A DNA stretch of 64,000 nt, taken from positions 2,394 to 66,393 of IMG/VR virus record IMGVR_UViG_3300047362_000301; one strand, 5' to 3'. The translations under genes were made by a program, and so were the position numbers. The stretch is from a virus. The notes under the pieces are model-generated. The model was not told the DNA's origin, did not search any database, and saw only the letters and a program-made list of their open reading frames with translations. Shown piece by piece: positions 6,265 through 57,286 of this stretch (position 1 is the stretch's first letter; every line of letters starts with the position of its first letter).

Positions 6265-6437
6265 TATACTAATTCTTCTACTATACTGACTACTTCAGCA
6301 ATTATTAATATTGTAACACCTATAGAAATAGATGACATTAGCAGTATAAAACCGCCTACTCTAAGCACAGATTTAACTACGCTTGCTGCAAAATGAGGAG
6401 TAAATTTACATCTCATTTGATCATAAAAATTATTCAT
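6264..6437 (-). CDS. Small membrane protein (57 aa)
   Basis: Hand translation MNNFYDQMRCKFTPHFAASVVKSVLRVGGFILLMSSISIGVTILIIAEVVSIVEELV; TAATG-coupled. Confidence 0.55.
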   Translation of the reverse strand: MNNFYDQMRCKFTPHFAASVVKSVLRVGGFILLMSSISIGVTILIIAEVVSIVEELV

Positions 6438-6458
6438 ATTATTATTATTTAATGTTAG

Positions 6459-6531
6459 TTGACTCGCTAGGGCTCGAACCTAGACTCTTCTGGACCAAAA
6501 CCAGACGTGTTGCCAGTTACACCACGAGTCA
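6459..6531 (-). tRNA. tRNA-Gln(TTG), no encoded CCA
   Basis: Acceptor TGACTCG/CGAGTCA, D arm GTGT/ACAC, anticodon arm TCTGG-TTTTGGT-CCAGA, T arm CTAGG-TTCGAGC-CCTAG, followed by A-CTAAC. Confidence 0.92.
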
Positions 6532-6536
6532 TTATT

Positions 6537-6785
6537 TTAAGACAATTGTTGTTGTATATCAAGATAATCTACTCTTTCGTGATCTTTTTCTATTAATGAA
6601 GCTATGTAATCCCACACGTCTCGTTGTTTTTTTGTGTGATCTAACACGCCTTGAAGTTGTTCTATCGTAATAAAAGGAGTTTGATTATCTTTTATTTCTT
6701 GCTTTAACCTGCTAATGTCATTGTCTAGTGAATATATAGTAGCAAAAGCTTTGTCATGCGCTCTGTTTTGTATATCTTTTTCCAT
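6537..6785 (-). CDS. Hypothetical protein
   Basis: 82 aa ORF in a tightly packed minus-strand array. Confidence 0.55.
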   Translation of the reverse strand: MEKDIQNRAHDKAFATIYSLDNDISRLKQEIKDNQTPFITIEQLQGVLDHTKKQRDVWDYIASLIEKDHERVDYLDIQQQLS

Positions 6786-6786
6786 A

Positions 6787-7020
6787 TTATTTGTTAATTA
6801 TAGAGTTACCATACATTATATCTTGAGCAGATAAATTGTAAGTTTTTATGTCACAGTATACTGATATATCAGATATTTGACTTACAGTTAAGTCATACCA
6901 TGATGTTTCAGACATAAGCGCATACTTAAGTCTTTTAGCGCTAGAATATTTTCTAGCATTTTCTTGTAGTGACAACTTAAAACCTGGTTTTAGTTTGTCA
7001 TAAATTGTTTTTAATTTCAT
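6787..7020 (-). CDS. Hypothetical protein
   Basis: 77 aa ORF whose ATG is 5 nt after the GGATAATA box of repeat copy 2. Confidence 0.6.
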   Translation of the reverse strand: MKLKTIYDKLKPGFKLSLQENARKYSSAKRLKYALMSETSWYDLTVSQISDISVYCDIKTYNLSAQDIMYGNSIINK

Positions 7021-7024
7021 ATTT

Positions 7025-7057
7025 ATATTATCCGTTTTAATTCGTATTTAGTTTGTA
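7025..7057 (-). promoter_or_regulatory. Class I repeat/promoter (copy 2)
   Basis: Plus strand atattatcc-gttttaat-tcgtatttagtttgta. Confidence 0.8.
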
Positions 7058-7260
7058 ACAAATCTTTCTTTATTACTATCGATTATTTCACCGATTTCGT
7101 CTTGCATAGCTACTACATCCATAGCAAGTAGTTGTAGTTCTGCTAATCCATCAACTTCATAGGTACTTAAATCATTGACTTCATTATCTTGTATAGCGTT
7201 TACACAGTCTCTTAACGCTCTTGCAGTATTCTCAAACCTGCAGTAACTCATGTTAGGCAT
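7048..7260 (-). CDS. Conserved phage hypothetical protein (NMSYCRFENT family)
   Basis: MPNMSYCRFENT..L.DC motif; stop codon inside repeat copy 2. Confidence 0.65.
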   Translation of the reverse strand: MPNMSYCRFENTARALRDCVNAIQDNEVNDLSTYEVDGLAELQLLAMDVVAMQDEIGEIIDSNKERFVTN

Positions 7261-7280
7261 ATTTAATTATTTAATGTTAG

Positions 7281-7353
7281 TTGCGGCGGAAGGATTCGAA
7301 CCCCCGACCTTCGGGTTATGAGCCCGACGAGCTGGCCACTGCTCTACGCCGCA
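7281..7353 (-). tRNA. tRNA-Met(CAT), initiator type
   Basis: Acceptor TGCGGCG/CGCCGCA; D stem GAGC/GCTC (A11-U24); anticodon arm TCGGG-CTCATAA-CCCGA with three consecutive G-C pairs; T loop TTCGAAT. Confidence 0.92.
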
Positions 7354-7358
7354 TTTAG

Positions 7359-7436
7359 TGGAAGTGGGCGGAGTCGAACCGCCGTTTACTATACGACCAT
7401 GTATTTATGGGTATTAGTACTTACCTTATCACTCCC
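7359..7436 (-). ncRNA. Minimal tmRNA-like RNA (tRNA-like domain only, Ala identity G3-U70)
   Basis: GGGAGTG/CACTTCC-A acceptor with G3-U70; stemless D loop ATAAGGTAAG; long imperfect helix; 3-nt linker AAC; T arm GGCGG-TTCGACT-CCGCC. Confidence 0.7.
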
Positions 7437-7439
7437 ATT

Positions 7440-7582
7440 TCGAGGCACCAGTTGTGGACAGGTAGTTAACTAGTATTGTCATTTATCCACACTTTCTGTT
7501 TTGTACTGGCACAGTCGTATCCATCCGTTTGGTTCATAACTGCGCCGATCTACCTAACGTGACCTGTATGCCGCCGCCTCGA
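7440..7582 (-). ncRNA. Putative structured rod-like ncRNA (143 nt)
   Basis: Closing stem TCGAGGCG/TGCCTCGA; ACAGGT/ACCTGT; GTTA/TAAC; terminal hairpin GGCGCAGTT/GACTGTGCC. G-U wobbles favour the minus strand; GC-rich and ORF-free. Confidence 0.55.
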
Positions 7583-7586
7583 TTGT

Positions 7587-7661
7587 AACAAGCATTGGAG
7601 GATCTTCGTTAGCTTAACAGTTTAAATTACCACTGCCATACTAAGCCCTCTACCGCTTGCT
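7587..7661 (-). ncRNA. Putative long-hairpin ncRNA (75 nt)
   Basis: Nested stems AGCAAGCG/TGCTTGTT, GAGGG/TCCTC and TGGCAGT/ACTGTTA with G-U pairs. Confidence 0.45.
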
Positions 7662-7663
7662 AT

Positions 7664-7852
7664 TTATTTTCTACGCCAAGCTTTGTGTACTTGATCGCTT
7701 AGCTCTTGGCTTACTATTTGTAATTCAAGAACTTGTTTGTTGGCAATAATAGGAATATAACTATATTGCTGTGTTGCGCTGCAGTTTACACAATTTGAAT
7801 AACCTAATGCTATTCTGCCTGCCGGTATTTTGTTGTTACATTTACATCTCAT
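7664..7852 (-). CDS. DksA/TraR-type C4 zinc-finger protein
   Basis: MRCKCNNKIPAGRIALGYSNCVNC matches C..C..IP..R......CV.C; ATG at 7852 is 5 nt after the repeat box (ORF track extends to TTG at 7867). Confidence 0.6.
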   Translation of the reverse strand: MRCKCNNKIPAGRIALGYSNCVNCSATQQYSYIPIIANKQVLELQIVSQELSDQVHKAWRRK

Positions 7853-7856
7853 ATTT

Positions 7857-7889
7857 ATATTATCCAATTATGTTCGTATTTAGTTTGTA
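7857..7889 (-). promoter_or_regulatory. Class I repeat/promoter (copy 3)
   Basis: atattatcc-aattatgt-tcgtatttagtttgta. Confidence 0.8.
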
Positions 7890-7890
7890 A

Positions 7891-8094
7891 TTAGTCTTCA
7901 TCTAAACCCGCATGTAATTTTTCTATTGTAGCAGACATAATCATGTGCATTAATTGATTGTACTCGTCACCTTCTAGTTTGTTATGATCTAGTTCTGAAC
8001 CATCAATAGCCCACTGAACAGAATCATACAATGTTTCTTTGATGTAAGAGACTTGAGCGTCTGCTATTTCATCTATAATTTTCATTTTACTCAT
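7891..8094 (-). CDS. Hypothetical acidic protein
   Basis: 67 aa ORF overlapping the upstream ORF by 4 nt. Confidence 0.55.
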   Translation of the reverse strand: MSKMKIIDEIADAQVSYIKETLYDSVQWAIDGSELDHNKLEGDEYNQLMHMIMSATIEKLHAGLDED

Positions 8095-8348
8095 AATATT
8101 GCTTTTTTTACTTGTTTTAAATCGTATTTTTCATGTGAATCACGCCACATTTTGTGCATTGTGTACTTACTTACTTGACTATAAGATGATTTACCTCGTA
8201 GTTTTACTTGTTTGTACTCGCGATCAGTAAATGGTTGGCATTCACCATGCACTTTGTTGATCTGATAGTGCTGAAATGCACGCTTTTTTCTGTTAGAAGC
8301 AACGTATTGCTTCAGCTCTTGCATATTACTACACATAGATTCTATCAT
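8091..8348 (-). CDS. Hypothetical basic protein
   Basis: ORF track; true start may be the downstream MQELKQY. Confidence 0.5.
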   Translation of the reverse strand: MIESMCSNMQELKQYVASNRKKRAFQHYQINKVHGECQPFTDREYKQVKLRGKSSYSQVSKYTMHKMWRDSHEKYDLKQVKKAIL

Positions 8349-8475
8349 TTATAGTATACCAGTTTAAGTAATCTGTGTATTCTGTGTTTTGATGTAGTCT
8401 AGTTAGAGCTTTGTAGCCATTATCTGTTTCGATAATAGCATTGCCAGTTTCTTGATTGAATTTGATTTTTTTCAT
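8329..8475 (-). CDS. Small hypothetical protein (48 aa)
   Basis: MKKIKFNQETGNAIIETDNGYKALTRLHQNTEYTDYLNWYTINDRIYV, immediately after repeat copy 4. Confidence 0.5.
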   Translation of the reverse strand: MKKIKFNQETGNAIIETDNGYKALTRLHQNTEYTDYLNWYTINDRIYV

Positions 8476-22214: not shown

Positions 22215-23771
22215 ATGTCAAATGCAATTGTAAAAAATCTGAACTTTGGTTCGGATGCTAAAAACAATGTGTTTGCTGGTATTACAAAACTTACACAAGC
22301 CGTTAGCTCCACACTAGGAGCTAGTGGCAAATGTGTTATGTTAGAAGATAGTACTGGTCAACCTATTATTACAAAAGATGGTGTAACTGTAGCTGAAGCT
22401 ATTACACTTCTTGATCCTGTTGAAAACATGGGAGCAACATTACTTAAACAAGCCGCAAAAAAAACTGTTAGTGAAGCAGGTGATGGAACCACTACAGCAA
22501 CCGTATTGGCTCATGCTATACTAAGTGAAGCATACAAAGTAATAACAAAAGAAAACTCAAGAGAAGTAAAAGAAAGTATACTTACGGCTACAAACAAAGT
22601 AGTTGATTACTTAGATTCTATAGTAACACCAGTAGATGGTGATATGATAGATCAAGTTGCTACAATATCTACAAATAATGATCCTATACTTGGTAAAATT
22701 ATTGCAGATGCTTTTAGATCAGTTGATCAAACAGGTGTAGTGATGCTAGAGGTTTCTGATTTACCAGAAACTAATTTTGAAACTATTGATGGTGTACAAT
22801 ATGATAGAGGATTAAAAAATATACATTTTGTAACTAATCAAGATACTAAAACAGCTGAACTAGATAAACCTTTAGTTTTAATTGTAGAGTCAGAGGTTGA
22901 AAATGTAAGAAAAATACAAAGTGTTTTAGAGTATGCTATAAAGAATAAAAGAGCATTGCTTATTATTGCTGATGTTGATCAACAAGTTATGTCAGCTTTA
23001 GCAATGAACAAAATAAAAGGTAATATTAAAGTAAATGTTATCGATGCACCTATTTATGGTGTAAATAAAAAAGAAACACTAGAAGATTTAGCGTTACTTA
23101 CAGGTGCTACAGTTATCAATGAAGATCTTGGAGATGATATTGATTTAATACAACCTGAACAACTTGGTGAATGTAAGAAAACAATAACTAGTGAGCATGA
23201 AACCATATTGCAAGTTCATGAGGTGAATAAAGAAGTCAAAGATTTAATTGAAGATATAAAAGCTAAACTTAAAACAGCTAAACACCCAGGTATTGTAGTT
23301 AATAATGAAAAAAGATTAGCTAGGTTATCAGGTAAAGTTGCTGTTGTAAAAGTTGGTGCTAATTCCGAAGTTGAATTAAAAGAAAAACGTGATAGAGTTG
23401 AAGATGCTATCTGTGCTACTAAAGCTGCTATTAAAGAAGGTATTGTACCTGGTGGTGGTATTGCTTTATTAAATGCATCACAAGAAATAGATACTTCAAA
23501 CTCTTTAGAAAAAATACTTTTAAGAGCTATTAAATCTCCTTTCAATACAATACTTGCTAATGCTGGTATTAAAAATGAAAAGTTTTTTAATCAAGAAGGT
23601 AAAGGTCTAAACGTTGTTACAGGAAATATGGTAAATATGATTGAGTCAGGGATTATTGATCCTTTACTTGTCACAAAAAGTGCATTAAAAAATGCTAGCT
23701 CTGTGGCTAGAACTATTTTATCAACCGATTGTGTAATCAATAATCTTAGAATTAATGAAAGCAATAGGTAA
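22215..23771 (+). CDS. groEL: Phage chaperonin GroEL
   Basis: ITKDGVTVA, GDGTTTATVLA, ERLARLSG-like KRLARLSGKVAVVKVGA, EGIVPGGG, GIIDP; no GGM tail. Confidence 0.95.
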   Translation: MSNAIVKNLNFGSDAKNNVFAGITKLTQAVSSTLGASGKCVMLEDSTGQPIITKDGVTVAEAITLLDPVENMGATLLKQAAKKTVSEAGDGTTTATVLAHAILSEAYKVITKENSREVKESILTATNKVVDYLDSIVTPVDGDMIDQVATISTNNDPILGKIIADAFRSVDQTGVVMLEVSDLPETNFETIDGVQYDRGLKNIHFVTNQDTKTAELDKPLVLIVESEVENVRKIQSVLEYAIKNKRALLIIADVDQQVMSALAMNKIKGNIKVNVIDAPIYGVNKKETLEDLALLTGATVINEDLGDDIDLIQPEQLGECKKTITSEHETILQVHEVNKEVKDLIEDIKAKLKTAKHPGIVVNNEKRLARLSGKVAVVKVGANSEVELKEKRDRVEDAICATKAAIKEGIVPGGGIALLNASQEIDTSNSLEKILLRAIKSPFNTILANAGIKNEKFFNQEGKGLNVVTGNMVNMIESGIIDPLLVTKSALKNASSVARTILSTDCVINNLRINESNR

Positions 23772-49786: not shown

Positions 49787-52700
49787 ATGCCTTTTACAGA
49801 AGAAGAAATAGCAAACATGTTTACTGACACTGCGCTTGTAGAAGCTCAAGAAGAAAAATGTCCTGAAGGTTTTGAAAAAGATAATGTTACTGGAGAGTGT
49901 ATACCTACTGATTTAAAGATTTCGCCAGATTTTGATCCTCAAGAAGGTCTTCAAGACATGGTAAACTTAACAGACACATTAAAAAAAGGACCTGATGCGG
50001 TTGAATCTATAGAGATACAAGATGTAGAAAAACCTTTAGTTCCAGATATAAACTTTAGTGTTGCAACAGATTGGGGTTTAGATTTTATTAAAACAACGTT
50101 TGATAGACAATATAAAGAAGGATATATAACAAGCGATATAGGTTACGCTAACAATTTATTAAATACAGAATTAAAAGATTATACACCTGAAGTATTACAA
50201 GAATTTTTTGGTTTAGAAATTTTAACAGATGAAAATAATAAAGAAATTGAAAATATAGCTAAAACAAAAGGGTTAGCTGTTTTTAATAGCTTAATGAAAA
50301 ACAATCCTACAATAACAGATAAACTAATTCCTGCTACTTTTGAAAAAATATCACCATTATTAGAGGCTGAAAAATTAAGATTACAAAAACAATACACAGG
50401 AGAAAATGCTGCAAAAGCAATAGAAGAATATGGGGTGTTTTTTAATAAAACTTTAAATAACGAATTAAATAAAAACCCAGTTTTTAAACAAATACTAGAA
50501 GCTAATTTAAGTTTAGCTGAAAAAACAATAGCTGAAAGTATTAGTAAATTAGGAAAAGAAGCATTAGATATAGAGGATATAGGTGATTTAGAAACAGGCG
50601 TAAGAAGAATGTCTAGATATTTAAAAGAATATGCTTTAATGACTAAAGGTTCTATTTCAGCTGGTAAATTTAGAGCGTACAATGATCAAGTTGAAAAAGA
50701 TTTATCTAATGCGGAAAAATATGGTTGGACGGATGATACGGTTGTATATTTAAGAAAAGGAAAAGATCAAGGTAATCAAATAGATGGAGATGTTATTCCA
50801 GAAGTTTTAGAAGGTAAAAAGCAAAGAATACCAGGAGAACAAAACGCATATATAAAAACAACATGGAAAGAAGCTAGAGAATATCAAAAATCACTTGCTG
50901 ATCCTCAAATGCAAAAAGGAGTAAGTGAAATTAGCGAAGCACAAAGAATTAAAGATGCAACAACTTATTTTGATAAAGCTGATTTAACAGACGGAATAAC
51001 TTTTAAAGATTTTACTATTGGTTTAGGTGAATTTTTACCTCAAATACCTTTAGGTATTTTAACCGCTGGATCAGGAATTATATTACAAGAAACTGCAGGT
51101 AACTATGTAGATAATTTATATGCAATAGCTAAGCAAGACGGTTATGGAGATAATCCTACTGGCGATGAATTGTTTAAAATAATAGAAGAAAAAAGAGATA
51201 GAAAAGGTTTAGCTTTTTCTACCGGTATTCCACAGGGAGCTATGGAGCTTTTTGGTTTAAAGAAGTTAACTAAATTAAGTAAAGAACTTATTAAGAGTGT
51301 TCCTAAAGGAGCTTTAATAAGAGGTGGAATGAATAATTTTAAAAATGTTTTAAATGGTTTAGCAGGCTCTAAAGTTAGAAAACAACTTGCATATTCAGCT
51401 TTTTATGAAGGCTTAACTGAAACTGGACAAACGCTAGGTAGTCAAACATCTCAAACTATAGCTAGTGGTGGAGAAAGTTATTATAATTTTGACGAAATAT
51501 TAAATGCAGCTGGTATGGGTTTTGCTTTAGGAGGTTTTTTACCTTTTGCAGGCGGTGCAGCAAGACAATCTTTAACAGAATTTAAAAATACAGCTTCTAT
51601 TATAGCTGGTAAATTTAATCCTAATCATGTTGAAAATATATTTAACATGCAACAGTCTCAGGTTGAAAAAGATTTTAACGAGGGGCTTATATCTCCTGAA
51701 GAAAGAAGAGAAAGGCTTATAGCGTTAGGAGAAGTAAGAGCCGCTGGTGCTCAACTTCCTAAGTTTCAAATATTTAACCCTATTACTAATGCTTTTAGTA
51801 AGATGTTAGGAAGAGATGCTTCTTTAACAGGAAATATTGGGGAAAATTTAAGTCCAGAAGATAGAACTGAAGCTATAAAATTACTTATTGAACAGCAGAG
51901 ATTAAAAAATTCTAAGAAAAATATTAATCCTGATCTTGTTGATCCTAAAATAAACGAAAGATTAAAAGAAATACAACAACGTTTACAAAATATAGTTATA
52001 AAAGATGAAATAAATTTAGCCAAAGAAAAAGGTAAAAGCATGACGGCTAAAGAAGATTTAAAAATAACTAAAAAATTTGCTGAAATATTAGGTGTTGAAG
52101 TAAATGATAAGCTAGCAAATGACCCTGTAGCTTTTCAAAAATTTCTTGATGAAAATAAAATTGAGTTTAATATAGAAACCGATAGTGGATTTGTAGGTCC
52201 TGATGGTAACACTTTATATATTAATTTACCTACTATAAAAAAGAATGGTGTTAACTTTAAAACAGCTTCACATGAACTTCTTCATGTTATGCTTTATGAA
52301 GAAATACAAAAAAATCCTACAAAATTTCAAGCAGATGTAGATAGTTTAATTGATAGTTTAAGTCCTGCTCAAAAAGAAACTTTAAACTTATTAATGCAAC
52401 CGTATCTAGAGCAAACAATTGAAATAGAGGAAAATGGAAAAAAAGTACAAGCCCCTTATTTAGAAGTAAGGCCTGATGAATTTATTACTCAAATGTGGGA
52501 AGGTGGTTTGTTTGAAAAAGATCCTTCGTTATTACAAAAATTTATAGATTTTATAAAAAATATTTTTGGTAATGTTTTTGGTTCTAAAGTTGATGTAAAC
52601 ATTGATAACCCAAATGATTTAAAATCTTTTTTTAACGCTTATAAAGAAAGTTATAATACTGGTAAGTTATCTCAATTTATTATAAATAAAAATAACCAAA

Positions 52701-55700
52701 GAACAGGTGTAAAACCTAGTTCGATAGCTAAATCTAGCGACCAAACCGCATTTCAAGCTATGGATCAAATAGTTCCTTTAGGCACAACAAAAGATCAATA
52801 TTTAAAATTAAATATAAATGAAGCATTTAATGCTACTATGCCTGGCAATGTTATATCTAACTATATTAGCTCAAAATCAACAAGTCCACAACAATTTAAT
52901 GAAAATATAGCAACTATTAGAGATAGATTAGCTAATTTTAATCCTGACGCTAAAAGAAAAAATGACAAAAATTCAACTCCTATACAATTTAGTGAGTTTG
53001 TTGTTGCTAATACTAATTTTAGTAAACTTGTAGCTAATAAAAAATTAGCAATAGAAGCTGATAAAAAAGCACAAGAAGATAGAATAGATGATGGAACATT
53101 GCAAATAGCTAATCCTAAGTCTACTTCTTCTAGTAAACCAGAAATAGACAAGCGTATTATATATCCTGATGCTGTTTTACCTAAAGCAAATGAATTTAGT
53201 AATAAGTTTTTGACTGATACTAAGTTTAATTTAAGCACTTTATCAACAGAAGAGTTGTCTAATTTAACATATAAAACTTCTAAAATAATTGCGCCGCAGG
53301 CTTTTGCTGATATATGGGGATTACCTTTAAAAGTAATAACTCAGAAAAACTTTAATCTAAGTGACATTAAAAATATTAGAAGAGTACAATCTTGGATAAG
53401 AACCAATGCAATCACTCTTATTAAACTTTTACCAGAAGGTAATACTGATGTAAAAATTTCAGATTCTAAAATAAAAAACAAAGATGGTACTTTTAGAAAA
53501 ATAAAAAGAGGTGGAGAAAGCTTAGCTTTACCTGATAATATAAGAGACAATCCTGTTTTTTATACTCAACTATTTAAACCAGATGGAACACCTGTAAAAA
53601 TAGATAGTGAAACATTAAATGCTAAGGGTAAAAGTAAAAGTAAAAGTAATCAGTACAGAAAAAGACCTGACATAACTAGAACTCAATTTTTAAAAGCATT
53701 TGGTGTAACAGATAATAAATCTGATAAACAGTTTGATGTAAGAGAAAGCGAAGCTCAATCAATAAAAGGTTTGTTAGAAATTGTAGGCAGAAACATTACT
53801 AATTATTATGCAGAACAAGATTTAGATACTAGACCAGACATATCTGCAAGTAAAAAAGCTATTTCAAAAGTAAAAATGAGATCAGGAGCTAGTAAATTAG
53901 CTTTTAGTAGTGAATACCTTAAAGATTTTACTAATGATTTTCAGTTAATGAATGGTGTTTCACCAAAAGACGTTATTCCAATGTACGTTAACACTGGTAA
54001 AGAAGATTATTCTAAATACAAATATGGTACTAAAGATCGTGATGCTTACGCTGCTGATTTAATAAAATATGGAGGAGAATATATAGGAAATCTTTTTCAA
54101 GAAGATTTAGGTGGAAGAGCTTCTTTTTTTAATTCATCTAATTTTGCAGCAGGAAGTAAAAATAGACTTGGTTCTACTTATTTTTATAGCAATGAAAGAA
54201 AACAAATTATAAAAGAAATTAAAGAAAGACAAAAACAAAGAAAAAAAGAAGGTAAATTTGTAAAAGAATGGACTACAGAAGAAAAAGAAAAAATTAAAGT
54301 AGCTCTTAGTAATAAAGATTCTTATTTTGATACTCGTAAAAAAGGTTGGTTTGAAAATAAAACCAAAAATTATGAAGGTGGTTTATTAATTTTAAAAATG
54401 TTTTCAGATATAGTAAACGAAAATCCTGAAGCTATAAATATGGTAACTGCGTTTTTTAATTCTGCTGTTTCTTCAACTGGTCATTTTTGGAGACAGTTAT
54501 CTTTTCCTAGAATGTTAGATAATGATTATTTAAATTTTGTGAGACTAAAAAACAAAGCTAAAAGAGATTTTGAAAACAATGTTATAAGTGAAGAAAAATA
54601 CGAAGAATTAACAAATAGAACAAATGGAAAATATGCTGTTATAAAAGAACACATGTGGCAGCAAAATGCGGCTTTAGATTTTATTTTACCTGCAATGTTT
54701 GACGGTACACTAGAAGAAAATTACAAATTTCTAGAATTAAATTATTATCAAGCAGGTATTTCTTTAACAAATGACAACAAACTAAAAGATACAGAAGGTA
54801 AATACGGTCCTAAATACAATTATGGAGAAAAAGAAGTTGCTCCTTTTAAAGAAGGTTTAATTAAAGCTATTTTAAGTGGAAACCCTAATGATGCTATAGA
54901 ATCTGTAATTAGATATTTAATGGCTGAAGTTAGTAATAATAATGGTGGCTTTAATTTAAACACGCTTACTTTTGACAATAAATCTATAGCTGAAATATAT
55001 AATCTTCAGCTAAATTCAAACCAAATAAATAAACAAAGCATCGTTAATCAACAATTGTTAGCTAGACTTGTAGTTGAAAAAGCTATAACAAAAGAAAAAG
55101 CTAGACAATTGTTGCTAAATGGAATACCTTTAACTCCTGAAATAGCGCAAACTTCTGTTATAAACAACAATAAATTAAAAAGCACTCCAATACCTTTTAG
55201 TAAAGATATAGTTTTTACTAATAAAAATGTATTAGATAGGATGGCTTATTTAGATGATCAGGCTAATAAAGCTAGAGTAACTTTTAGTAAAGACCAAGAT
55301 TTAAATAAAGAATTTAACGAAATTATAGAAAAAGCAACCGGTATTGGTAAAGAAAAAAGATACGGTCAAACTAAAGCTAGAGCTGTTGGTGCGGATAAAG
55401 GTAGATTTGATTTGTTTGGCATACCACCGTCTGCTCAAGATTTTGTAGGTTTAACTAGATATTTTGCTGGTAAAGGAAAACAAGGCGATGCAACAATAGC
55501 TTGGGTTAAAAAGAATTTTTTAGATCCATTTGCAAGAGGAAATATAGATATATCTAACGCTAGGGTTGCTTTAAATAATGATTTTAAAACTTTAAAAAAA
55601 TTATTAAATATTAGTCCTAAAAATTTAAGTAAAAAAATAACTGGAGAACCTTACACTGTAGGTAATGCTGTTAGAGTTTACACGTGGGTTAAGCAGGGAA

Positions 55701-57286
55701 TGACTATTCCAGGATTATCTAAAGCTGATCAAAAATTATTGGTTGATTTTGTAGAAAACGACGCTAATCTTATTGTTTTTTCAGAACAATTAATTGCAAT
55801 AAATAAAGAAAATGGTTATCCTAAACCACAAAGTGGGTGGTTAGCGGGTACTATAAGTACAGATTTACTTGCTAGTTTAAATAATGTTGTAAGAGCTAAG
55901 TATTTAAAACAATGGCAAACAAATGTAGATAATGTGTTCACAGAAGAAAACATGAATAAACTAGAGGCGGCTTTTGGCACTGGTTATAGAGAAGCTTTAC
56001 AAGATATACTTGGTCGTATGAAAACTGGTAGTAACAGAGGTTTTAAAGGCGATACATTAACTGGTAGATTTATAGATTGGATCAATGGTTCTGTAGGAGC
56101 TATAATGTTCTTTAACAGTAGATCAGCTGTGCTACAAACTATATCAGCTGTTAATTTTATTAATTGGTCTGATAATAATATATTAGAAGCAGCTAAAGCT
56201 TTTGGTAATCAAAAACAATATTGGAAAGATGTCATGGAATTGATGAATTCTGATTATTTAATTGAAAGACGTAATGGTTTAAAAATAAATGTTGCTGAAG
56301 CTGATATTGCTGAAATTGCTGCTGAATCTAAAAATAAAGCAAAAGCTTTTATAAGTAAAATATTAAAATTAGGTTTTTTACCTACACAAATAGCAGATAG
56401 TTTTGCTATTGCATCTGGTGGCGCTACATTTTATAGAAATAGATTAAAATCATTATTAAAAACTGGTATGTCACAAAAAGAAGCTGAAGCACAGGCTTTT
56501 TTAGACTTTAGAGAAATAGCAGAAGAAAACCAACAGTCTAGTAGACCTGATAGAATTAGTAAACAACAGGCTGGTCCAATGGGACGTATTATATTAGCTT
56601 TTGCTAACACCCCGGCACAGTATGCAAGAATAATGCAAAAAGCTGCTAGTGATCTTAAGAATCGCCGAGGAGATGATAAAACAAATATATCTAAGATTAT
56701 ATATTATGGAGCAATACAAAATGTAATATTTAACGCTTTGCAACAGGCTTTATTTGCTATAGGTTTTGGAGATGATGAACCTGATGAAGAAAAGTTAAAC
56801 AAAAAATATACAGGCATTGTAAACGGTATGGCTGATTCATTACTAAGAGGGTTAGGCTTTCATGGTGCTGCTGTATCAACTTTAAAAAACACTATAATTA
56901 AATTAGCGGAAGGAGCTGAAGCTCAAGATGCCGCTATAGAATTATTAGATTTTTCACCACCTGTATCTTCTAAAATAGGAAAATTAAGATCTGCAGGTAG
57001 AACATGGGACTGGAATAAAAAAGAAATAAAAGAAAAGGGTTGGTCATTAGATAACCCTGCTTGGCTTGCTATTGGACAAGTTATTAGTGCTTCTACTAAT
57101 TTACCTTTAGATAGAGGGATAAGAAAATTACAAAATTTAAAAGATGCGTCTGACTCAGAAAATGCTGAATGGATGAGAATAGCAAACGTTTTAGGTTGGC
57201 AAAAATGGGAATTAGACTGGGCTAAAGATAAACCTAAAAAAAGAAAAACAAGAAAAAAATCTTCTAAAAAAAGAAAAACATTTTAA
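49787..57286 (+). CDS. Giant (2499 aa) internal virion/ejection polyvalent protein with zincin motif
   Basis: Hydrophobic EG.TE..Q / AAGMGFALGG segment; HELLH plus PDEFI metallopeptidase motif; conserved helical C-terminal domain. Confidence 0.65.
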   Translation: MPFTEEEIANMFTDTALVEAQEEKCPEGFEKDNVTGECIPTDLKISPDFDPQEGLQDMVNLTDTLKKGPDAVESIEIQDVEKPLVPDINFSVATDWGLDFIKTTFDRQYKEGYITSDIGYANNLLNTELKDYTPEVLQEFFGLEILTDENNKEIENIAKTKGLAVFNSLMKNNPTITDKLIPATFEKISPLLEAEKLRLQKQYTGENAAKAIEEYGVFFNKTLNNELNKNPVFKQILEANLSLAEKTIAESISKLGKEALDIEDIGDLETGVRRMSRYLKEYALMTKGSISAGKFRAYNDQVEKDLSNAEKYGWTDDTVVYLRKGKDQGNQIDGDVIPEVLEGKKQRIPGEQNAYIKTTWKEAREYQKSLADPQMQKGVSEISEAQRIKDATTYFDKADLTDGITFKDFTIGLGEFLPQIPLGILTAGSGIILQETAGNYVDNLYAIAKQDGYGDNPTGDELFKIIEEKRDRKGLAFSTGIPQGAMELFGLKKLTKLSKELIKSVPKGALIRGGMNNFKNVLNGLAGSKVRKQLAYSAFYEGLTETGQTLGSQTSQTIASGGESYYNFDEILNAAGMGFALGGFLPFAGGAARQSLTEFKNTASIIAGKFNPNHVENIFNMQQSQVEKDFNEGLISPEERRERLIALGEVRAAGAQLPKFQIFNPITNAFSKMLGRDASLTGNIGENLSPEDRTEAIKLLIEQQRLKNSKKNINPDLVDPKINERLKEIQQRLQNIVIKDEINLAKEKGKSMTAKEDLKITKKFAEILGVEVNDKLANDPVAFQKFLDENKIEFNIETDSGFVGPDGNTLYINLPTIKKNGVNFKTASHELLHVMLYEEIQKNPTKFQADVDSLIDSLSPAQKETLNLLMQPYLEQTIEIEENGKKVQAPYLEVRPDEFITQMWEGGLFEKDPSLLQKFIDFIKNIFGNVFGSKVDVNIDNPNDLKSFFNAYKESYNTGKLSQFIINKNNQRTGVKPSSIAKSSDQTAFQAMDQIVPLGTTKDQYLKLNINEAFNATMPGNVISNYISSKSTSPQQFNENIATIRDRLANFNPDAKRKNDKNSTPIQFSEFVVANTNFSKLVANKKLAIEADKKAQEDRIDDGTLQIANPKSTSSSKPEIDKRIIYPDAVLPKANEFSNKFLTDTKFNLSTLSTEELSNLTYKTSKIIAPQAFADIWGLPLKVITQKNFNLSDIKNIRRVQSWIRTNAITLIKLLPEGNTDVKISDSKIKNKDGTFRKIKRGGESLALPDNIRDNPVFYTQLFKPDGTPVKIDSETLNAKGKSKSKSNQYRKRPDITRTQFLKAFGVTDNKSDKQFDVRESEAQSIKGLLEIVGRNITNYYAEQDLDTRPDISASKKAISKVKMRSGASKLAFSSEYLKDFTNDFQLMNGVSPKDVIPMYVNTGKEDYSKYKYGTKDRDAYAADLIKYGGEYIGNLFQEDLGGRASFFNSSNFAAGSKNRLGSTYFYSNERKQIIKEIKERQKQRKKEGKFVKEWTTEEKEKIKVALSNKDSYFDTRKKGWFENKTKNYEGGLLILKMFSDIVNENPEAINMVTAFFNSAVSSTGHFWRQLSFPRMLDNDYLNFVRLKNKAKRDFENNVISEEKYEELTNRTNGKYAVIKEHMWQQNAALDFILPAMFDGTLEENYKFLELNYYQAGISLTNDNKLKDTEGKYGPKYNYGEKEVAPFKEGLIKAILSGNPNDAIESVIRYLMAEVSNNNGGFNLNTLTFDNKSIAEIYNLQLNSNQINKQSIVNQQLLARLVVEKAITKEKARQLLLNGIPLTPEIAQTSVINNNKLKSTPIPFSKDIVFTNKNVLDRMAYLDDQANKARVTFSKDQDLNKEFNEIIEKATGIGKEKRYGQTKARAVGADKGRFDLFGIPPSAQDFVGLTRYFAGKGKQGDATIAWVKKNFLDPFARGNIDISNARVALNNDFKTLKKLLNISPKNLSKKITGEPYTVGNAVRVYTWVKQGMTIPGLSKADQKLLVDFVENDANLIVFSEQLIAINKENGYPKPQSGWLAGTISTDLLASLNNVVRAKYLKQWQTNVDNVFTEENMNKLEAAFGTGYREALQDILGRMKTGSNRGFKGDTLTGRFIDWINGSVGAIMFFNSRSAVLQTISAVNFINWSDNNILEAAKAFGNQKQYWKDVMELMNSDYLIERRNGLKINVAEADIAEIAAESKNKAKAFISKILKLGFLPTQIADSFAIASGGATFYRNRLKSLLKTGMSQKEAEAQAFLDFREIAEENQQSSRPDRISKQQAGPMGRIILAFANTPAQYARIMQKAASDLKNRRGDDKTNISKIIYYGAIQNVIFNALQQALFAIGFGDDEPDEEKLNKKYTGIVNGMADSLLRGLGFHGAAVSTLKNTIIKLAEGAEAQDAAIELLDFSPPVSSKIGKLRSAGRTWDWNKKEIKEKGWSLDNPAWLAIGQVISASTNLPLDRGIRKLQNLKDASDSENAEWMRIANVLGWQKWELDWAKDKPKKRKTRKKSSKKRKTF

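Follow-up and report, generated by a model that had tools for sequence, protein, structure and literature searches.

A phage gene for a tmRNA reduced to its tRNA-like domain, and the family of tag-less viral RNAs to which it belongs

The 64,000-nt stretch of viral DNA analysed here (the window; positions 2,394 to 66,393 of IMG/VR virus record IMGVR_UViG_3300047362_000301) carries on its minus strand, at 7359..7436, a 78-nt gene for a transfer-messenger RNA (tmRNA) that consists of the tRNA-like domain (TLD) only. Strong purifying selection acts on the element, a tmRNA homologue that has no template for a peptide tag. At least 72 distinct mini-tmRNAs (minis; 68-185 nt, median 90 nt) from at least 86 IMG/VR sources make up its family, in which the alanine identity pair G3-U70 is preserved and helix 2 is free to vary as long as it remains a helix.

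An earlier note, made from the sequence alone, had drawn the minus strand from 7436 to 7359 as a TLD without an mRNA domain. The sequence given there matches letter for letter, and the fold drawn coincides with both the minimum free energy and the centroid structures (-24.8 kcal/mol). Sequence, fold and alignment to the Rfam tmRNA model RF00023 delimit the gene as 78 nt up to the discriminator A. The 5' strand of the acceptor stem, GGGAGUG (7430..7436), pairs with 7360-7366 within the 3' strand CACUUCC, which together with the unpaired discriminator A73 (7359) occupies 7359..7366. The stem has 7 bp, the third of which is a G-U pair between G3 (7434) and the U at 7362. The D-loop analogue AUAAGGUAAG (7420..7429) is unpaired and contains a near-invariant GG, which in the alignment falls on the GG in the 5' loop of the consensus tmRNA; it lacks a D stem in every fold, whether of the element, of its homologues or of the RNAalifold consensus. 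Helix 2 is a closed irregular hairpin of 33 nt with a 6-nt loop (7387..7419) and no tag frame. An AAC linker (7384..7386), aligning to the AC that precedes the T stem in the tmRNA model, joins it to the T arm GGCGG-UUCGACU-CCGCC (7367..7383), with every cell of the stem paired. The 3' trailer is CUAAA (7354..7358), and CCA is not encoded, as it is not in many of the bacterial tmRNA genes sampled; CUA follows A73 in 34 of the 35 type-A sources (defined below) where it was free to vary. All these parts lie on the minus strand. The pseudoknots PK1-PK4 of tmRNA are absent, since 78 nt leaves no room for them. The fold statistics are modest when the z-score is taken alone (z = -3.0; 3 of 200 shuffles fold equally well), and the element is judged to be more than chance because of conservation and covariation in related viral contigs, not because of the z-score alone.

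The lack of a tag is evident from the centre of the molecule. The central 33 nt contain no GC dinucleotide and therefore no GCN resume codon. Among the 72 distinct minis listed, 49 lack any central frame of at least two codons that runs from GCN to a stop; the frames that other minis do have are not conserved among related minis and do not have ssrA-like ends.

Covariance models, a check that the earlier note had proposed, place the element with tmRNA. Run at permissive thresholds and with enough flank, RF00023 aligns globally to 7356-7436 (35.9 bits, E 1.4e-12; gathering cut-off 47 bits); GGGgUGAucuGGaUUCG at the 5' end and ACGcGGGUUCGAuUCCCgCCacCUCCACCA at the 3' end of the consensus are matched, and 34 nt replace 326 central positions. 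The tRNA model RF00005 reaches only 23.6 bits on the same stretch, below its cut-off of 29, so that the tmRNA model is ahead by 12 bits. The mitochondrial tmRNA model RF02544 gives no match to the element at E up to 10. Our own family models score the element at 82.2 bits (R1) and 76.3 bits (R2). A test for a tRNA cloverleaf failed, the folds containing no D stem and no anticodon arm of 5 bp and 7 nt, and none of the homologues has the D stem or 7-nt anticodon loop by which the note would have recognised a decayed tRNA. The identification as a TLD without an mRNA domain is thus borne out by the higher score of RF00023 than of RF00005, the retention of G3-U70, the lack of cloverleaf homologues and a tag-bearing relative that shares the acceptor stem of type-B minis. 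At the Rfam gathering thresholds, only tRNA-Gln and tRNA-Met are reported in the window and the element is missed. ARAGORN likewise calls only tRNA-Gln and tRNA-Met(CAU) there, with no call on the element and no tag found. The 15.2 bits reached by the permuted tmRNA model RF04321 come from a spurious match that spans the junction with tRNA-Met; no full or permuted tmRNA lies around the element in the window at the Rfam gathering threshold, and early matches to truncated and permuted tmRNAs were artefacts, produced by the cut region and the adjacent tRNA-Met.

The family was collected in IMG/VR with several patterns. The exact 3' 25-mer occurs at 21 loci, 19 of which have the 5' strand GGGAGTG close upstream and are minis; the other two resemble the 3' ends of full tmRNAs, and ARAGORN calls one of them as such. 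The 5' 17-mer occurs at 39 loci, of which 21 are new, and complete minis with the same 3' strand are carried by 16 of these but not by the remaining five, among which is a fusion with the 3' half of tRNA-Met. A pattern in which both acceptor strands were free matched 27 stretches, all in loci already collected. The set designated type A comprises 24 distinct sequences (73-177 nt) from 35 sources. A looser 3' pattern, with the 5' strand sought up to 520 nt away, matched at least 119 stretches and gave at least 62 new loci; among the 62 listed are 51 minis (68-185 nt), eight longer elements (189-430 nt), six of them called by ARAGORN as tmRNAs with tags, and three loci without a 5' strand. Most minis are of type B, with the order GGGCGTG, AAATGGTTAG, hairpin, AAC, GCAGG-TTCGAWT-CCTGC, CACGTCC and A. 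The acceptor stem of the window element differs from the type-B stem by one pair. Searches of GenBank phages by blastn, with the element and its upstream region and with a type-B member, returned only matches of T-arm size to tRNAs and tmRNAs.

The homologues allow the covariation test that the earlier note had proposed, and compensatory changes are found in the acceptor stem, the T stem and helix 2. In a cross-type alignment of 35 sequences (A4), pair 4:69 takes all four Watson-Crick forms (CG 22, AU 9, GC 3, UA 1), and T-stem pairs 2 (CG/GC/UA) and 3 (AU/CG/GC) both covary. The basal pairs of helix 2 are 100% paired in 15 type-A sequences (A2), with double changes at five of five pairs. The covariation score of this helix is 0.387, compared with 0.074 after shuffling and at most 0.080 when the partner strand is slid. 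By inspection, 13 different basal helices occur; strands pair over a mean of 5.6 bp with their own partner but 2.1 bp when cross-combined. In a model-based alignment of 54 distinct rows (A5), basal pairing of helix 2 is 87.7%. RNAalifold independently predicts the same three helices. The unpaired parts are also conserved: the GG of the 5' loop is at least 90% conserved in A4, the AC of the linker is invariant and its first A is at least 90% conserved. Over the 45 positions of the TLD core there are two variable sites, whereas the neighbouring tRNA-Met varies at 11 of 73 columns (10 loci in which tRNA-Met starts within 6 nt of the mini).

While its neighbour covaries, pair 3:70 hardly changes, being GU in 34 and AU in one of the 35 sequences of A4 and GU in 52 of the 54 rows of A5. 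The earlier note had taken loss of G3-U70 among homologues as evidence against a tmRNA-like RNA; retention holds in 34 of 35 homologues and fails in one copy, which has A3-U70. G3 is found in all 51 minis listed from the 3'-half scan and in all 19 earlier ones, at a position where A would also pair. The 5'-motif scan and the acceptor-free scan both left U70 free: the 16 complete minis that the former added all have it, and the 27 stretches matched by the latter all fall in loci whose minis have this acceptor stem. The second copy at L142:341-434, found by the model alone, also has G3-U70.

The central hairpin, in contrast to this fixed core, is hypervariable. Many hairpins are capped by GNRA-type tetraloops, and none has a 5-bp stem with a 7-nt loop. 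The minis listed contain 33 module clusters, four of which are common to different TLD types. The module in the centre of the minis of L011 and L012 matches the downstream element of L020 and L022, and that in the centre of the L029 mini matches a module upstream in L008. RNA modules appear to be shuffled between scaffolds.

The origin of the minis is indicated by a viral contig (L109) with a 244-nt tmRNA that ARAGORN calls with the tag ANKNQFALAA. With type-B minis it has in common the acceptor stem GGGCGUG/CACGUCC and the A-CUA end, and its 5' loop GGUUUCGAC is only slightly unlike the type-B loop GGUUAGAC. Because this tagged tmRNA shares the type-B acceptor stem, the minis are truncated tmRNAs and not decayed tRNAs, and sequence comparison points to descent from tmRNA rather than from tRNA. 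Canonical tmRNA (ssrA, RF00023) shares with the window element the stem GGGNGUG/CACNUCC with G3-U70, A73, the GG loop, the AC linker and the T arm GGUUCGAnUCC. Unlike canonical tmRNA, the window element lacks a resume codon, a tag frame and pseudoknots. The likeness to tRNA-Ala lies in an acceptor/T-arm minihelix with the alanine identity pair. The tmRNA genes sampled from the phylum Bacteroidota consist of GGGGRUG, a GG loop and UUCGAC, then GGAC, the T arm and CAYCUCCA. When R2 was applied to 151 genomes of this phylum (E up to 1e-4), seven matches were obtained, all of them 65-nt pieces; four are the 3' ends of the genomes' own tmRNA genes and the other three were not traced, and no stand-alone mini was seen in the 151 genomes. 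Mimicry of the host tmRNA by sequence identity was not borne out: the 25-mer occurs in 12 bacterial contigs, which are of Patescibacteria type or are Bacteroidales/Bacteroidaceae, Planctomycetota or unnamed metagenome-assembled genomes, and none is from the expected flavobacterial hosts.

The TLD-only architecture was already known in a phage before the window element, as mycobacteriophage DS6A is reported to have a tmRNA of this kind (tmRNA Website; Hudson, Lau and Williams 2014, PMC4131195). The DS6A element is located at JN698994 28478-28560 (83 nt), where the record has no annotation. Like the window element, it is phage-encoded and lacks both a D stem and a tag; the two have in common an acceptor stem of 7 bp that includes G3-U70, the discriminator A73 with CUA after it, a GG loop, a short hairpin that closes helix 2 and a canonical T arm. 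Both score below the RF00023 cut-off (43.2 bits for DS6A, 35.9 for the window element). However, the window element is 5 nt shorter, its 5' loop AUAAGGUAAG is shorter than the CAAUGGUGGUCGAC of DS6A, and the sequence similarity between the two is limited to the tmRNA consensus. The hosts also differ, being Actinomycetota for DS6A and presumably Flavobacteriia for the window phage. Finally, the window element is one of a large family with swappable hairpins and lies in a cluster of tRNA and other non-coding RNA genes, whereas the DS6A copy lies between protein genes.

Two further kinds of molecule are comparable. Plastid tmRNAs of Mallomonadaceae that lack a coding sequence (CDS) and measure ~65 bp are known, together with tag-less mitochondrial forms from jakobids and oomycetes (PMC11915505). 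As described in that source, these CDS-less organellar RNAs resemble the window element in having little beyond the TLD and apparently no tag frame, but they co-occur with a dedicated imported SmpB, whereas the window phage encodes none. TLD fragments have also been engineered, by joining the 5' 25 nt and 3' 34 nt of the Thermus thermophilus RNA via UUCG (PMC3929946). These, like the window element, are two TLD halves joined by a hairpin, and are reported to bind SmpB and to take part in peptidyl transfer; they are laboratory constructs, whereas the natural hairpin in the window is longer and variable. No account of such a family in flavobacterial or marine phages was found in the literature searched, and the supplements of PMC11915505 and the tmRNA Website might list more TLD-only tmRNAs of phages.

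In the likeliest reading, which we hold with moderate confidence, the gene is a real truncated tmRNA whose product is charged with alanine, is bound by SmpB and competes with host tmRNA; overall, ordinary tagging by trans-translation would be blocked or diverted in infected cells. The RNA would be cut by host RNase P at G1 from a precursor, possibly one that holds several RNAs, trimmed at its 3' end and provided with CCA. Host alanyl-tRNA synthetase would then charge it via G3-U70 and A73, and the charged mini would bind host SmpB and EF-Tu, the SmpB being presumed to be that of the host because the phage genome contains no gene for it. The mini would compete with host tmRNA both for SmpB and for stalled ribosomes, and since it has no template it could not add the ssrA degron. 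In Escherichia coli, a TLD-only molecule is reported to inhibit tmRNA strongly, perhaps via titration of SmpB (PMC4131195; PMC11915505), and this inhibition is reported to be independent of chargeability (PMC4131195). A TLD fragment bound to SmpB is described as mimicking a whole tRNA and, together with SmpB, as supporting peptidyl transfer without mRNA (PMC3929946).

Several observations weigh against interference with host tmRNA as set out above, or against the evidence for it. The reported inhibition that needs no charging, taken together with the strict retention of G3-U70, argues for something more than titration of SmpB and suggests an action of the RNA on the ribosome, beyond that of an SmpB sponge. 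The processing, the charging, the binding of SmpB and the effect on the host are all deduced from what is known of tmRNA. Several search patterns fixed U70 along with other parts of the TLD, and part of the apparent invariance is therefore due to ascertainment. The upstream copy of a tandem pair (L020:79-158) has A3-U70 and is the sole exception to the identity pair. Hairpin modules recur across TLD types and in neighbouring RNAs, and the hairpin may thus carry a function outside the proposed mechanism. As regards recognition as tmRNA, the RF00023 score lies under the gathering cut-off, and in the loci on which ARAGORN was run it called no mini. Among seven records of cultured relatives (MW202828, elemoB 14-3B, Panino, phi19:3, phi38:1, Gundel_1 and Calle_2), R2 finds no member of the family and nothing above 28 bits, compared with 41-81 bits for minis.

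The alternative that survives best, although on balance it is unlikely, is that the RNA rescues ribosomes instead of blocking their rescue. A charged mini with host SmpB would free ribosomes stalled on broken mRNAs without adding a degron; the nascent chain would be accepted on one or several alanines and released by a release-factor-like protein, or by drop-off followed by Pth. The strictness with which G3-U70 and A73 are kept across the family is what a need for charging would lead one to expect, and mere SmpB titration reportedly has no such need (PMC4131195). Moreover, a TLD fragment with SmpB is reported to make polyalanine in vitro without mRNA (PMC3929946 citing Shimizu and Ueda 2006), and CDS-less tmRNAs of mitochondria and plastids are described as persisting alongside SmpB (PMC11915505). 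However, the TLD-only molecule is reported to be inhibitory in E. coli, and no homologue of a release factor, ArfB or Pth turned up in the phage, although no search was aimed at these. The computed evidence does not separate rescue from blockade. A more specific version, which we offer tentatively and regard as less probable still, is that the charged mini and host SmpB would add alanine or short alanine tails without a template at ribosomes stalled by the mRNA damage that infection causes, with helix 2 serving as a slot by which swappable modules reach SmpB or the stalled ribosome.

The variability of helix 2 gives rise to another, improbable explanation, namely that the TLD supplies only RNase P and 3' processing, CCA and stability, the function residing in the hairpin or in the release of neighbouring RNAs. 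Consistent with such a processing handle are the contrast between hypervariable hairpin and fixed core, the module clusters common to different TLD types, the occurrence of the same modules free-standing or within other conserved RNAs nearby (the centres in L011 and L029) and the position of the element between other structured RNAs and a tRNA. Yet a handle needs neither G3-U70 nor A73 nor a GG loop of tmRNA type, all of which are kept, and the shortest minis (68-74 nt) have a minimal hairpin only. The idea that one hairpin module mimics a repeat of the clustered regularly interspaced short palindromic repeat (CRISPR) type found no match in 401 Bacteroidota genomes at up to three mismatches. 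That the RNA is a decoy for host defence nucleases or toxins attacking the acceptor ends of tRNA or tmRNA is very improbable: only the general position in a phage tRNA cluster would suit a decoy, but the element lacks an anticodon loop and is therefore not one for anticodon nucleases, and no defence system aimed at the TLD of tmRNA was met in the literature, where no search was directed at one. Least probable of all is a decayed tRNA-Ala pseudogene or attP-type fragment of host tmRNA without a function of its own, which would agree with the lack of an ARAGORN or Rfam-threshold call and with the fact that certain bacterial tmRNA genes end in the identical 3' 25-mer, but is contradicted by the compensatory changes in all three helices and further disfavoured by a core that varies less than the adjacent tRNA-Met, by the presence of both TLD halves in mutually paired form, by the absence of an integrase from the genome, by differences in flanks and hairpins that speak against a single recent clone, and by the distribution of the identical 25-mer, which is found in Patescibacteria, Bacteroidales and Planctomycetota genomes and not in the expected flavobacterial hosts.

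In the literature searched, DS6A is the single case of a phage TLD-only tmRNA, a kind that has hardly been studied, beside a few organellar forms; to it are now added at least 72 distinct sequences, carried by marine-type viral contigs and forming a large, unannotated family. The family adds what one sequence could not provide, namely the retention of the identity pair beside a covarying neighbour, and a relative with a tag by which the minis are linked to tmRNA. It also makes testable the long-standing question of what a tag-less tmRNA does and whether it must be charged. Interference with ribosome rescue, or its takeover, may be a common strategy of phages of the Flavobacteriia type; if the minis are indeed active, charged ligands, a widespread RNA family of marine phages would represent a viral takeover of ribosome rescue. 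Standard annotators miss such genes, since ARAGORN called none where it was run and the window element lies under the Rfam cut-off.

The window covers most of its source record, a virus sequence of 66,393 bp rated as complete by CheckV, with a G+C content of ~32%. Among the genes of the phage are those for a large terminase, a portal, virion proteins and tail fibres; no tyrosine integrase was found in the genome. The large terminase is nearest to that of an uncultured podovirus (62%), followed by Flavobacterium elemo phages (45%) and by phages of Maribacter, Cellulophaga and Tenacibaculum (30-42%); on account of these relatives the host is probably a marine flavobacterium. An open reading frame (ORF) for a Cpn60/GroEL-type chaperonin lies at 22215-23771 on the plus strand, and an ORF of 2499 aa at 49787-57286, also on the plus strand, has no Pfam match.

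On the minus strand, the units 7586-7662, 7437-7583, the mini (in third place) and tRNA-Met make up a dense non-coding stretch. The tRNA-Met(CAU) gene (7280..7353, minus; ARAGORN, RF00005 66.9 bits) lies 5 nt downstream of the mini and is probably co-transcribed with it; tRNA-Met starts within 6 nt of the mini in 10 of the 35 type-A sources. The tRNA-Gln gene called by ARAGORN is at 6458-6531 (minus). ORFs adjoining the element match only PHROGs of unknown function, with nothing related to translation. Contigs from two of four metatranscriptome runs, mapped on 6400-8400, cover the element; neither ends nor strand nor level can be read from such contigs, and carried-over DNA may be present.

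Adjoining the 5' end of the mini, with a 4-nt spacer, is a conserved pseudoknotted RNA (7437..7583, minus) with 14 distinct homologues of 82-169 nt and no match in Rfam. By inspection of these homologues, compensatory changes occur in P1 (GAGGC/GCCUC, GAGAC/GUCUC, GAGGU/ACCUC), in the pseudoknot helix (ACAGGU/ACCUGU, ACUGGU/ACCAGU, ACUGGU/ACCGGU) and in P3 (GUGGA/UCCAC, GCGGA/UCCGC). This RNA tolerates a variable hairpin insert and lies outside the acceptor helix of the mini. A possible third structured RNA (7586..7662, minus) directly follows the stop codon of the ORF at 7664-7867 and is closed by an 8-bp helix, UAGCAAGC/GCUUGUUA. By eye, it resembles an arrangement found upstream of minis in other loci, in which ...ACGAGUAGCUUAAUUAGG and CACAUAAGUGAAU... 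enclose a variable hairpin.

Some cultured relatives carry other tRNA-like genes. In Tenacibaculum phage Gundel_1 (NC_062747 73061-73129; L197:1501-1569), a 69-nt tRNA-like element without D and anticodon arms lies just upstream of the phage tRNA cluster; it scores 28 bits with R2, has no ARAGORN call and, as its third pair is G3-C70, is without the alanine identity pair. A tRNA-like gene of MW202828 (532-627; L191) has a normal D arm, but its anticodon arm is replaced by a long hairpin; it scores 19 bits with R2 and is possibly an interrupted tRNA. In Panino, the permuted tmRNA* call by ARAGORN (L200:1498-1830) overlaps genes for tRNA-Asp and tRNA-Thr and may therefore be false; the published tmRNA count for this Maribacter phage may rest on that call.

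Some contigs carry two minis. The copies are 4 nt apart in L020 (79-158 and 162-257) and ~70 nt apart in L015 (388-482 and 550-624), where one copy has a decayed 5' acceptor strand; in L142 (341-434 and 825-914) they are ~390 nt apart, with an ORF and tRNA-Thr between them. At L035:2004-2092, the 5' half of a mini is joined to the 3' half of tRNA-Met, apparently via a deletion between neighbouring genes. A further conserved RNA-like element of ~95 nt, CAGAGAGAUGGCAGAUAUGCAG...CACAUCUCUC, is absent from the window and directly follows the 3' end of the mini in 13 of the 35 type-A sources (L005, L009, L010, L017, L023, L026, L029, L030, L034, L036, L037, L039 and L041). Its closing helix covaries, being AGAGAGAUG/CACAUCUCU in one form and AGAGGGGUG/CACACCUCU in the other.

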